Below, in pieces: positions 56,178-64,000 of a stretch of 64,000 nt of DNA; position 1 is the stretch's first letter; each line of letters begins with the position of its first letter. This DNA comes from Mustelus asterias (Eukaryota), in contig NC_135803.1 of NCBI RefSeq assembly GCF_964213995.1, positions 121,396,001 to 121,460,000 of the forward strand. The letters run 5' to 3'. Made by a program: the position numbers and the translations under genes. The notes beneath the pieces were generated by a model that was given only the letters and a program-made list of their open reading frames with translations, searched no databases and had not been told where the DNA came from.

Positions 56178-58281
56178 CAGTTTTAGATATCTCCATTCCT
56201 TTGCATTGTATATCTATGTTGTGTGATATCTTTATTTCTAATTCATTTGGTAAAACATATATAATAGTTTGCCTGTACAGTTACAGTCTTAATAACATGC
56301 TTTCAAAAGACAAATGTGATCTTATGTAATATAGGATCTTAATAGCTGTGTACTGGCATTACAGATTTCCAGCAATGCTAAATATACATAGGTGCAAACA
56401 TAAATGAATTGAAAAATGTCTAGATAACTTGTGCTCTTCCTGGGGAGAAGCAATTGTAGCATCGCAAGATACAAAATAGTTGATAATTGTGTTGCTCGTG
56501 TGAAATGTCTCTATCCAAATGGAGAATTCATCGCTAACTGCGTTCAACACTTTAAATCCATCTCATTAGCAAAGGAAGCAGCTGCATCTGACAGTGAGGA
56601 TCCCAAGCAAGCGCCACGGGCTAATTCTGATGCAGCAAATCTCACTGAGTGTTATGAGTTCTCTAATCCAACCGCCAGCAAACATGAGACTTGAATCTGT
56701 TGTTGGTGTGGTTAAGGAAGCTCTAATGTACAATCTGCTAACCAGTGTGGAAATTGTTGCTGCTGTGTAGGTGGATTCTGCTGCAAGTGGGAGAGAGCGA
56801 GGAAGAGGCCCAAGCAAGGAGGTAAAGAAACTAGTCCCCACCATGGTGATGGTTTCCAATCTGAGAGCCTGCTGAGGAAGTGGTTGGCAGCCAAATCACA
56901 TCTCCCAGTAAAACCTTTCTTTGTGATAACTACTTTGTAGACGAATGTTCTGTAAGCAGGAAGCAAATCACAACATTTTCCAAAATGACGGAACATTACA
57001 TTTCATGGTTTATTCTGTGCTTAAGTTGTAACAGAAAATGCCACAGCAAATTTTAGAATGCAAAAAATAAGATTTCTTTCCACAAAATGAATGAGTTTAC
57101 TTTTTTTGGAGTCATGGCTGTTGTTCCCTGTGGTAACATGACTGAAATCTGTACTAAATTCGGGCAAAAACTATAGTTCAAGATGGGAGCTTATTCACGT
57201 TTTGGCCCTTACCTTATATTTTCACCTGAATGCAATGGTGTGTAATGATGTGGTTCTATATCTGTTGGTAGCCCTCCATTGTGTGTGAGCAAACAGTGAA
57301 TACCGATACTGGAGTTATTTAGGGGGCACGTCGTTACTGCTGAGGTCCAAGCCTCATCATCTTGAGGCTTCACTTATTAACATCCATCCACCACAGGCTT
57401 CAATTATTCTAGAATCTACTTCAGATTCTATCCACATTCAACACCCATCCAACTTTCTTTATGGCCTTCACGTGTGATCTCGAGCTGTACATTTTTGCAA
57501 AAACTATACCCTCCACTCTTATGACACTGCCTATTTCTTTGCCCAATTCCTCTGTTTCATTGTTGCCATCCATTCACTCAGCCGTTATATAAGCAGCTTT
57601 TGAAGCACCACTCTCTCCTGAAATACTCCTGCTCACCACGTCTGGTGCTGATCTGGTCCGGCCATTAATTTCCAGATCTGCCAAGACCATGTTCAGCACA
57701 GATGTCACATTACGCTCAACCTCCTACTATTTCAGACCACCCAATAGGGAATGCTTCATTTCCTCTATGTCACAATGCCTCCTCAAACCACTTTCCGAGC
57801 TCCTTTATTCTTCTCTTCACCCCAAATACTAACTGCAGAGATTTTCGAAATTTCCCCTCTCAGATTAAGACCATCTATGCAGTTGTGTCTACCAAAGGTG
57901 ACCAAAGCTTCTCTTCCTCCTGCTCCTGATTTGCCACCAGTCATTTGTCAATTCTACCTTTCAGTGCACATTACTTAGCAATTTCTCCCACGTCTGCATT
58001 TGACCTCTCAAGCTCATTTCTTCCATGAGACCCCAACTCCTGCTCCTTTGAATTTTTCCCCCACTCAGGAACACCTCCTTGTCCTCAGATTGCTGTCTAG
58101 AAATTACTCTTTGTTTCAGATACCATTCATTCCCCTTTCAAAAACTACATTATCCTCTTATGCAGAAAAAAAATCCATCCTCTCTGGCCACCATCTCATC
58201 ACTAACATTTCCCTCTCAAAACGTGTTCTAATACATTGTCACCTTCCAGCTCCCTGCCTATGTCTCCAAAAGCTCATTGTT

Positions 58282-58327
58282 TGAATTCATTTGGTCCAAT
58301 ATCTACTGAATTCATTTGGTCCAATAT
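58282..58327 (+). repeat. 21-bp direct repeat TGAATTCATTTGGTCCAATAT x2
   Basis: 58282-58302 and 58307-58327 are identical. Confidence 0.9.
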
Positions 58328-58372
58328 GTAATCTTTTTGCAGTACCAATACTATAGTCAAAGTCACACCTGA

Positions 58373-58655
58373 GTTTTTTTTTGTTTAGATCCAATACAAT
58401 CCAATCAAAGTCCAATTCAAAGTCTCAGCAAGTGAGACATTCCAGATCCAAGCTGATACTTCCTGTCTTGGGCTGATCTACATGATCCAAGCTGATTGGA
58501 GCAGACATTGCACCTTCTCCAAGCTTGATCTCATTTGCATCTTAGCCAAAAGCTCGAGATGCCGCTTTAAAAAATTGCTTCAAATGAAGCCTCAGCGCGA
58601 CCTCATGACTTCAACCAAGTGCAGGATGCCAAAACTACACTTGATCTTAGCCAAA
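58373..58655 (-). mobile_element. U2 snRNA-headed short retroposon (SINEU-like / non-autonomous Keno-like)
   Basis: 5' end TTTGGCTAAGATCAAGTGTAGT equals U2 nt 16-37. Internal U2 nt 4-27 mimic (21/24). A9 tail at 58374-58382. Perfect 15-bp TSD CAAAGTCACACCTGA (58358-58372, 58652-58666). Confidence 0.8.
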
Positions 58656-60323
58656 GTCACACCTGAAATTGGGATATGAGTGTGACTGTATTATCCCTCC
58701 TTGTCTTCCTCAACCTTTTTACTGCATTTGATATGGTTAACAAATTTCTTTTTGTCCAGCTCCATAGGACTGGGTTTGCACGATTCCATCCTTATTTGTT
58801 TGAATACAACTCAAGGTTCTCCATCAAAAGCTTTTGTTCCCATCCCTACGCTCTTCTAAAGATCTAACTTTCATTGTCTTATTTTACATGATGCCCATAC
58901 GATTTTTGCAACCTCCTTTGGTCTGGTTTTCCTTCCCAATACCCTTTGGTCCTCCTGCTCTAGGCATTTATGCATTCCCCCATAATCTTTGCCTCGCGAG
59001 TAATATAAATTATCTGGAATACCTACCTTAAACCCCTCAGTTCCCAAAACCTACTCAAAATTAATATTTTCAACAAAACTGTCATCACCAAACTCTTCCA
59101 CACAGCTTGCTCTCAATTCCTTTTAAAATATATTTTTCTTTTCACCACAGTATACCCACCCTCCACCTGCCATTAAAGGTGTGATAATAATTGCAAGTTG
59201 TTGCCATTGTGCATGGAAAAATCATTCCCCAACAAATGTTAAGTGAGCTCAAAATATACATAGAATTTTAATTCAAAGAGAATGAGGTACCTACTGAAAA
59301 TATTACTTAGGCAAGTTTATAGACAAGAACTGGCCTAGGGGAGAATTCTACTCAGTTAATTAGTCAAGAAATGAAATGACAGGTCGATTGGTGTTTGTTC
59401 CTTGCTTAGTGAAATACGATGACACATTAATTTGTGTCTTCATCATTGTTTGAATAGTTCTAGGGTACCACTGATAAGTTAGTTTAGTTTTTTTTGTCAT
59501 CAAGCTGTATATTGAAAGTTGGTGAACTATTAATTACATTCTTACATCATCCTTGAATAGTTTTAGTGAGCCAACCTTGAAATATTGCAAAACTTAATAA
59601 TTTCATTTTAATTTTAAAAAGCCACTGTTTTTTTAAAAAAATGACTGAAGAATTATCCTAAACCCGAAAGCTCAAAGGTGTGAAAAGGGTGAAGACTGGT
59701 GGAATTATCAGGGGAATTAACTTGAAGGAGTTAGAGTCTGACAAGTGCAAAGAAAGATAAATATTCCCAATTGAAGCTGAAATGTTCTGAATTAATGATG
59801 TGTGCAACTGCTGATATTAATTCAATTCTGTCAGCACCGTGCTGGTTCCAGAACTCCAAAGCAATGACTCCATTGTGATATCATGACAGCATGCTGAAAT
59901 TTAAAAAAGCAGAAAAATAGAGATAAATGAAAGGTGTTGCTATTCATGGTAATGTGGAATTTGTTTTAAAATGGTGTTCACTAATGAGTTTTATTGCAGT
60001 TGTTACGTGAACACAAAGTTGGCTTCTTGAACTTGTGCTACAAGCCAATTTGTGAGAAGATCCTGTTTACAAAGTGCATGATCTTTTTTCTTTTATAATT
60101 ATCTCCTGATGCATCAAGAGGAGACCATAAATGTCAATAGGGTGGCATACTAGCTACGACGTGATGGAATCATAATCTCTTTAAGTGCATTGGCATTTCA
60201 GTTGTATGAAGACAGAATAGGAACAAGTTTTTTTCACCTGCAACGTAACAGATTATTTAATGAATCTCAAATTCATGCATGGAATACTGTAAGAGATAAA
60301 ACTTAAGTCTTCTGAAAAAAGAA

Positions 60324-62109: not shown

Positions 62110-62298
62110 GTAAATACCTGATTGTATTGTGTACCGTGCATTATTTACCTTGCGTTGCAAAAAGAAAACTATTAAGCCTTTTTTAAAAAATAAAGGGAAC
62201 AGCATTTATCAAAGTGAATCGTCAATAATTCTACACATTTAGGCATGACTTTGTGGTAACGTCCCATGTGTTAAATCAAGATTTTTATCTTGTTTCAG

Positions 62299-62654
62299 CC
62301 AAACTACGAGAGCAGCTGACGGTCTATGAAATCGTGACTCCCACTCGAGTGAGTGAGTGTGGGGAACCTTTCCCAGACACCATGCATTTTAGAAGGAGAA
62401 AGCGAAGCGTAGACACCGATCACTGGGCCTCCGCAACCCACTACAGAATTAGTGCATTTGGGCAATTCTTTCACCTCAACCTGACCGCCGATTCTGGATT
62501 TATCGCGCCGATATTTACCGTTACACACCTTGGGATACAAGCTAATGTGACAGACTTTCACCAGGAGGACACTGACACGAAGCACTGCTACTACACAGGG
62601 CAGGTCAATGCTAAACCAGAGCACACAGCTGTGATCAGCCTCTGCTCAGGACTC
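62299..62654 (+). CDS. ADAMTS9: ADAMTS9 coding exon 2 (prodomain); the gene continues beyond the window
   Basis: Acceptor TTGTTTCAG|CC restores the phase (GCC). YEIVTPTRV..GEPFP, furin site RRRKR, HYRISAFGQ.F.LNLT, GFIAPIFTVT and EHTAVISLCSG are closer to ADAMTS9 than ADAMTS20 as recalled. Phase-0 donor GTAAGT. Confidence 0.92.
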
Positions 62655-64000
62655 GTAAGTAAGATTTTTAACCCTCGCCATGCTGAATTGTAACTTTTTT
62701 TGGGAGTTTCCAAATCACTGTTCTGTATAATAGTGGTGATTTTTTAAAAAAGAAAATAAGTTGTGTGTGTGTGTAAAGAGGGGGACACAGATGATATTTA
62801 AAGTCTGAATTTGGAAACATAACGATATTGATACAATTCCACACTGATTGCCAATGGGGAATGAAGTTTGGATTAAAAGTTCATCAGTGCTACAACGTGC
62901 TGACCATCCAGCCAGACCTCACTGGGAAACATAACGTACTCCTCTGGGTAATATGCGTAAGTCGTCATTCCAACCCCCCCCCCCCCCCCCCCCCATGAAA
63001 AACACCTTCAAGATAACTATCTCTAAATAAGGTTGGAATAGTGGTACAGAATAAGATTGCAGTTTGCTCAGTTCGCACGGTGGAACACGGGGCTTCGGAG
63101 ATCCTGGGAATAAGTTTTTTTTCCTCTCTCTGTTTGAGATCGACGTCAAGAGGGTAATAACTCCAGTTGAAAGACGCCTCTTTTACGTGTACACTCAGCA
63201 AAAGGCACCACCCCCACCACAACACTGAACTAAAAACCTACAGCGCCAAGGCGGAGTCAGCACTCTTTCTGGCCAAACCCACTTGATTTCCCGGTTTAAT
63301 TCTTCGCCCAGACTGATAGCTTGGGTTTAAGCAGATTTGCCCACAGCACTGAATTACTGGGGGGTGGTTTTGCTTTGTAAAGGTTTTTTTGTAAAAGTTT
63401 AAAGTCATGCACACCAAACATTCTTGACCTCAGCTGCATGTTACTAAACTTCAAAATGCACCCGAGTGGAGATGCTTGCTGAAACTTCTGCTGTATTTTA
63501 AAAATATATATACAGGGGCTGGGTTGCTTACAGTGCCTTGCCTGTAGATCCAGAAGCAACAGTTCCTGGACAAACCACCTTTTTTTGTTTCATTTGCTTA
63601 CCTCGTGTTCACTATTTGGGAGTGCTCTCCCCTTGAATTATTGGATGTGACGCCGCGACCCCAAAGTCTTTTTTTTTGTTTTGGTCACTTAAATCTCCAG
63701 TGTTGGAAACAGCGACAAGTTCTTGAGGGTTTTTTTTTGGTTGGGGGCAGAAGAGGGAAGAAGATTATCGGAGCAGTCTCCATTTTCATCTCACTATAAC
63801 CTGGATCGCCCGTATATAAGCAGACAGCAGCTAACCCCTTTAATTTATCAGCGTGACAGTTGTTTTGCTGGGTTGTGGGGCGGAGCTGGGTTCTTTGCTC
63901 AAGAAGGTACGGTCACTTTTCTTAAGGCGGTCGAGAATGCTACTTGTGCATCCCTTGGCATCTTTATGTCGAGCTAAAAAAACACAAACGTGCACCCTGG

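Follow-up and report, generated by a model that had tools for sequence, protein, structure and literature searches.

The window, i.e. the whole stretch of 64,000 nucleotides from Mustelus asterias that was analysed, carries on its minus strand a retroposon of 283 bp that starts with a piece of U2 snRNA, ends in an A-rich tail and is bracketed by a perfect target site duplication (TSD). In the 5' to 3' direction of the element, the following features can be distinguished:

58652 to 58666, minus strand: 5' TSD, 15 bp, overlapping U2 nt 16-19 with its final 4 nt
58634 to 58655, minus strand: U2 snRNA head, nt 16-37, truncated at its 5' end (the head of relatives extends to nt 1)
58624 to 58633, minus strand: subfamily-specific linker, forming the loop of the head hairpin
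58598 to 58624, minus strand: antisense arm to U2 nt ~11-36 (Watson-Crick and G·U pairs), predicted to fold back on the head
58569 to 58590, minus strand: short hairpin and U-run
58539 to 58562, minus strand: internal block resembling U2 nt 4-27 (stem-loop I, extended), likely the relic head of an older short family
58533 to 58540, minus strand: ATGCAAAT octamer across the junction of two helices
58482 to 58534, minus strand: hairpin module 1, whose homologue is the short-family hairpin
58445 to 58478, minus strand: hairpin module 2, shortened by 14 nt in this copy and with a 3' side of U2 origin (nt ~40-65)
58422 to 58439, minus strand: hairpin similar to U2 stem IIb
58388 to 58418, minus strand: GAATTG/GATTG short repeats, common to the short family
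58374 to 58387, minus strand: A-rich tail with A9 at its end
58358 to 58372, minus strand: 3' TSD, 15 bp

The head, the internal block, the octamer, the A9 stretch and the TSD had all been described in the first-pass annotation, and the description proved exact in every point when compared with the window and with the genome's own U2. The head (58655-58634) is identical to this U2 at 22/22 positions and the internal block (58562-58539) at 21 of 24; the octamer occupies 58540-58533, and one single base (58373) separates the A9 (58382-58374) from the 3' copy of the TSD (58372-58358), while the 5' copy (58666-58652) has 4 nt in common with the head. The U-run at 58569-58590 resembles an Sm site and is at most a putative one. 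The 14 nt that are missing from the third hairpin are present in most relatives, and the truncated window copy alone is not recognised as U2 by Rfam (17.1 bits, E 3.6). An exon coding for a reprolysin propeptide (PF01562, ADAM/ADAMTS type) lies at 62229-62693 on the plus strand; the element is located 3.6 kb upstream of this exon, is antisense to it and probably sits in an intron. Just 3' of the element (58281-58326) there is a short direct repeat of ~21 bp with the core ATTGGACCAAATGAATTCA.

The element belongs to a dispersed multi-copy family, as the first-pass annotation had suspected. A genome search with the 283-bp sequence returned 3,721 first-look candidates and all 40 that were scored are near-full-length (the element itself and 39 copies with 88-92% identity), so the structure cannot be explained by chance. 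The exact word U2 nt 19-34 occurs 5,068 times genome-wide (control word: 0), and the linker type of the window copy is found in 5 of the first 100 matches listed. Among 66 heads sampled at 60 loci around the first word matches, all on contig C1 and selected by the exact head word, 60 continue into the full body of ~300 nt, and the match to U2 ends at nt 34-40 in all but one. Elements are ~300-330 nt long with poly(A) tail and TSD; TSDs of at least 8 bp were detected by a strict script in 19/30 young copies and in 10/30 copies of the window subfamily. Many subfamilies are apparent in an alignment of 54 copies and differ mainly in the loops and the linker after the head. The constant junction at U2 nt 37 that had been postulated is indeed fixed inside each subfamily, but it ranges from nt 34 to nt 40 across subfamilies. 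Divergence from the column majority is 3.9% for the 30 best relatives of the window copy and 0.7% for 30 copies of the youngest subfamily. The window copy is an older, 5'-truncated, dispersed and inert product of the SINE family. Bodies related to the family are also present in contigs of three other organisms (X1, X4, X6).

The 5' truncation of the heads is variable. Heads that start at U2 nt 1, which had been predicted, make up 5/30 copies of the window subfamily, 11/30 of the youngest subfamily and 12/66 of the unselected sample; none of 16 such heads extends into the upstream DNA of the class-1 U2 genes described below (at most 4/12 matching bases). A stop at nt 1, as on snRNA, is what would be expected of independent template-switch chimeras, for which a reverse transcriptase (RT) copies a headless RNA and then jumps to U2 snRNA, and additional U2 pieces in front of the head do occur in a few copies (L169, L222, L236), as do repeated 5' additions in the SINEU-2 element, described in the sections of PMC4494074 used here. 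Independent events, however, would fix neither the junction nor the linker within a subfamily, and they do not account for the 60/66 heads that run into the full body, for an antisense arm in register with the head across subfamilies or for the head-plus-body units within U2 arrays (both below). We regard such an origin as very unlikely.

The sequence downstream of the head had been considered non-U2; it actually consists of a copy of the head in antisense and, after it, of diverged U2. Complementarity to U2 nt ~11-36 directly after the head is significant in 40/54 copies when G·U pairs are scored, compared with 6/54 under plain scoring and 3/54 when A·C is allowed instead. A U4 origin of the same segment had given p ~0.02 in 3/4 copies and 0.17 in the window copy, and was rejected in favour of antisense U2, as it is significant in 1/54 copies only. 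The remainder of the body can be compared with an older short family of ~240 nt (2,110 candidates) that is colinear with U2 nt 1-154 but carries a hairpin where U2 has its branch-point region; U2 38-191 is matched in 25/25 of its copies and U2 91-191 in 21/25. The last module of the long form aligns end to end with this family, and the first module together with the internal stem-loop I matches its head and hairpin when aligned by eye. Judged by these alignments, the SINE body is largely U2-derived and the internal block is likely the relic head of the older U2-colinear family; this is the best reading of the block, for which an aid to targeting or folding had been considered. With a nested head above a body derived from the short family, snRNA heads appear to have been added recurrently at the 5' end. 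Examples of the short family are L061:8821-8960 and L209-L233, and a copy of the window type (L022) is inserted at the head of one of them.

Folding predictions indicate that the arm rearranges the head. Stem-loop I has a probability of at most 0.18 in the head of 10/10 full-length copies, in contrast to 1.0 in both classes of U2, and nt 25-36 of the head pair downstream with a probability of at least 0.82 in 10/10. The z-score of the predicted fold is -2.52 for the window copy and -6.67 for a copy of the young subfamily. Changes of stem pairs that are common to at least three copies comprise 20 G·U and 2 A·C, whereas private changes comprise 21 and 25, respectively (Fisher p 4e-4). The excess of shared G·U over A·C points to selection on the RNA strand in the source genes, with the proviso that the stems were drawn from the same alignment. 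Two-sided change was found at 1/68 pairs, no better than in shuffles. ADAR editing was considered as the cause of the G·U excess and rejected: private A>G and T>C changes are balanced (6:5 and 23:28).

The octamer had been interpreted as a possible enhancer for neighbouring U2 units. It is intact in 48/54 aligned copies, its two unpaired A are invariant, and neither the class-2 spacer nor 300 bp of DNA in front of class-1 U2 contains an octamer within one mismatch, all of which would suit a DNA element under selection. Against this, 6/8 of its bases are paired in two helices; a visual alignment places it on U2 nt 26-32 of the ancestral head, allowing for one insertion and one substitution; among the 54 copies, unpaired linkers elsewhere show the same degree of conservation; and most copies are far from U2 genes. 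An enhancer role finds no support here and is extremely improbable.

Copies within U2 arrays, with U2 upstream DNA in front and U2 nt 38+ behind, had been anticipated and were found at the level of the family. The class-1 U2 genes are organised in units of 1,833 bp and 8,035 bp on contig C24. The first array ends (C24:43.06 Mb) with the series upstream DNA, U2 1-39, SINE body with a deletion, its tail, U2 38-55, 5'-truncated Tx1 retrotransposon, U2 38-55, head with an intact SINE and U2 38-191; two SINEs and a truncated Tx1 are thus stacked here, with duplications of U2 38-55 between them, and the internal block is absent from the promoter-linked copy. A search for the SINE tail followed by U2 38-52 yielded 8 places and exposed a second class of U2 genes on contig C21, with units of 448 bp and Rfam scores of up to 175.5 bits. 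There, one SINE lies behind a complete 263-bp class-2 spacer (C21:28.06 Mb); it carries an A1T change and differs by ~3% from young copies. The end of the class-2 upstream region has 15 exact matches (controls: 4), 12 of which precede U2 nt 1, and 7/12 of these U2 starts run on into a SINE body, with at least six linker types. Behind class-1 upstream DNA, there is 1 exact match for any subfamily. Altogether, eight SINE copies are directly behind U2 upstream DNA. In situ insertions at nt 38 were observed in three cases, with a random expectation of ~0.0001 (5,068 insertions, ~100 U2 genes).

Further traces of array residence are dispersed. TSD-bracketed retrocopies of SINE-occupied array units are found on C1, C6, C7 and C14, the latter with three units in a row; C8 has a retrocopy of an array piece without clear TSD, and the copy on C12 has U2 33-52 in front and U2 38-58 behind, both inside the TSD. 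These retroposed fragments indicate that several subfamilies were once resident in U2 arrays. For the window subfamily, exact matches to class-1 (0) or class-2 upstream DNA include no promoter-linked copy, and its tail precedes decayed U2 38+ only at two neighbouring sites on C13.

Several of the promoter-bearing retrocopies include upstream spacer, and their RNAs must therefore have started farther upstream, by read-through rather than at the adjacent promoter. This raises the question of whether the RNA of the element is mainly a product of read-through from upstream U2, Tx1 or host genes, followed by processing. The retrocopies on C1, C6, C7, C8 and C14 with their upstream spacer or Tx1 tail are in line with this, neither in situ promoter-linked copy (C24, C21) qualifies as an intact current master, and transcription from flanking sequence was suggested for SINEU-2 in the sections of PMC4494074 on which we draw. 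Yet such long extensions at the 5' end are scarce (7 exact cases of class 2 versus 5,068 heads) and ordinary full-length copies stop exactly at nt 1; we consider read-through as the main source unlikely.

A host-maintained, variant snRNA-like gene, with the dispersed copies as its processed pseudogenes, was also weighed. It would explain the strand-specific conservation of the stems, the retention of stem-loop I and the U-run, the relatives in the three other organisms and the fact that a full-length copy scores 57.8 against the Rfam U2 cut-off of 46. Among ~150 loci, however, there is no array of the element with constant flanks of its own; instead, it has inserted into U2 genes at a site used by a retrotransposon and is accompanied there by duplications, its subfamilies turn over fast, and as for the branch-point sequence, the internal block lacks it and in the head it is masked. 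This explanation is highly improbable. As full-length copies pass the Rfam cut-off, they can inflate U2 annotations.

Several peculiarities of the U2 arrays were recorded on the way. The class-2 array (G000:C21:28,045,000-28,082,000; L248-L252) has ~85-90% identity to the C24 class and a different upstream region, and it is largely filled by Tx1 copies of either orientation inserted at nt 38. At G000:C24:44.81-44.94 Mb (L063-L068), the 8,035-bp tandem unit, which consists of an intact U2 gene and a second U2 that holds a broken Tx1 (itself split by another SINE), is amplified ~15 times. In seven units of 207 bp (L056:124-330 and six similar units, L056-L059), nt ~38-49 of class-1 U2 are replaced by repeats of nt 18-37, which removes the Tx1 target site and doubles the branch-point sequence. 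A 5' fragment that is U1-like, to judge by its motif, directly precedes a U2 head and a Tx1 with an internal deletion (L062:3640-3720).

An autonomous Tx1/Keno or Utopia partner that shares both ends with the SINE had been predicted. The 8,035-bp unit contains a near-complete Tx1 that ends at U2 nt 38; ORF2 with an APE-type endonuclease, RT and zf-RVT and ORF1 with a zinc-knuckle were identified in neighbouring copies. The 3' flank of Tx1 is U2 from nt 38/39 at 8 junctions and at 15 more in the amplified 8,035-bp unit, and wherever an nt-38 junction is interrupted in the two array regions examined (10/10), a tail stands before it, of Tx1 in 8 cases and of the SINE in 2. Tx1 is also dispersed: there are 905 candidates, 23 of the top 40 are outside the C24 arrays, and 0/13 inspected dispersed loci are followed by U2, which does not agree with strict U2 specificity. 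Dispersed SINE sites resemble the U2 site, with A at -3 in 21/34 (p 5e-5), G at -2 in 15/34 (p 0.003) and a pyrimidine at -1 in 30/34 (TSD of at least 9 bp, stacked copies excluded); A at +1 and non-A at -1 are partly forced by the poly(A) tail. Of nine Tx1 insertions tried, seven had a readable TSD and all seven sites are Y|A. The identical insertion site stands, but the prediction of a common 3' sequence holds only for an A-rich tail motif of ~7-10 nt, which is restricted to younger SINE subfamilies and is not the tail of the window subfamily; a search for long SINE-Tx1 homology found none (best E 0.19). To judge by the common site, the stacking and the similar relaxed targets, mobilisation of the SINE by the Keno-like Tx1 at the same U2 site is likely.

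The Tx1 variant of C24 itself opens with U2 1-35 and a similar antisense arm (p 0.004-0.007, above all 51 control windows), in which the same two A do not pair. For the C21 variant, the alignment gives no significant arm (p 0.26); folding still removes stem-loop I. Another U2-headed Tx1 5' end is located beside U4 genes (L084), and a Tx1 copy with TSD lies inside a U4 pseudogene (L113, G000:C23:12.096 Mb). Among 30 young SINE copies, 9 abut another SINE or Tx1; the label 'stacked' of one copy of the older set (L008) was rejected as a chance motif, and this copy was not counted.

Taken together, we consider it quite probable that this is a dispersed, U2-derived family whose U2-resident members are transcribed from the U2 promoter and copied by Tx1, with the arm folded over the head. 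Copies that reside before nt 38 would be transcribed by Pol II from the U2 promoter into an RNA that starts at U2 nt 1. The U2 bases in the arm-paired part of the head include those that pair with U6 and with the branch point; the arm is predicted to pair with nt ~11-36, undoing stem-loop I and covering these bases, and because they are masked, the SINE RNA would not act as a defective U2. Tx1 ORF2p would then prime on the A-rich tail, and insertion of the cDNA at U2 nt 38 would renew the source genes, while insertion at relaxed look-alike sites would give dead copies such as the one in the window. The family may have evolved from U2 via the U2-colinear short family, followed by duplication of the hairpin module and acquisition of a fresh U2 head with its arm.

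A more far-reaching version, to which we tentatively give slightly less than even weight, is that the U2 arrays serve as a nursery: Tx1 and SINE would both use the U2 promoter and both disarm their U2 5' end with a masking antisense arm, and transduction of SINE-occupied units by Tx1 would seed promoter-bearing masters. If true, this would explain how a promoterless snRNA-headed SINE has persisted through many subfamilies.

Among known systems, the family is closest to SINEU (Kojima 2015, PMC4494074), whose structural definition it matches; it is likely a SINEU variant, and likely one that is driven by the U2 promoter and mobilised by Tx1. In the parts of that publication on which the comparison is based, SINEU is found in crocodilians only, where it targets Mariner-N4_AMi via Tx1-Mar, and its transcription is left open. 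Common to both are, for SINEU-1 and SINEU-3, a length below 500 bp, a U2-derived head, a poly(A) tail, TSDs and the repeated addition of snRNA heads, and further tandem insertions around one TSD, a likely Tx1 partner, oligo-T tracts, which speak against Pol III, and a U2-colinear form (SINEU-3 in crocodilians, the ~240-nt short family here). The likeness is one of structure, as the bodies of crocodilian SINEU-1/2/3 were compared by description alone. Unlike SINEU as described there, the present family has a host from the sharks, its target is the U2 gene itself, recurrently at nt 38, some copies are preceded by U2 upstream DNA, the head is covered by an antisense arm and divergence goes down to 0.7%.

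Keno and Utopia share the U2 target site, according to the portions of PMC4640811 used. The partner resembles Keno in its APE-type endonuclease and RT, its Tx1-like two-ORF layout and its insertion before U2 nt 38/39 (PMC4494074 and PMC4640811, in part), a likeness of layout and site; it differs in its relaxed U2 specificity (0/13 dispersed loci, see above). A non-autonomous passenger of Keno was not found in the literature searched. With Utopia, as far as covered by the same portions of PMC4640811, it has the target site and tandem insertions in U2 genes in common, but the autonomous Utopia encodes a restriction-like endonuclease and the partner here an APE-type domain. An snRNA 5' fragment fused to another sequence, poly(A) and TSD are also features of U2/U6 template-switch chimeric retropseudogenes; these are, in the account given in the consulted part of PMC4494074, one-off events with variable junctions, in contrast to the fixed subfamily junctions and array-resident copies reported here. 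Nor does the element qualify as a Pol III SINE: its head is U2, it has T-runs inside and there is no tRNA, 5S or 7SL match in Rfam at E up to 10. The consulted parts of PMC5786205, PMC5499810 and PMC7245038 do not mention a shark snRNA-headed SINE, and the open literature searched contains no report of a SINE with a U2 head from cartilaginous fish; Repbase/Dfam may already list the family.

Loci with the order U2 upstream DNA, U2 1-39, body and U2 38+ allow the question of SINEU transcription to be tested directly. With ~300 nt, the RNA of the family is a candidate natural passenger of a retrotransposon that targets U2, and the arm provides a testable rule for how an RNA that starts with U2 escapes acting as U2.

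Finally, a few SINEs have inverted 5' parts or head-to-head nested insertions (L071:800-850, L142, L165), consistent with twin priming. Many of the loci examined also contain a tRNA-headed SINE that resembles shark HE1.
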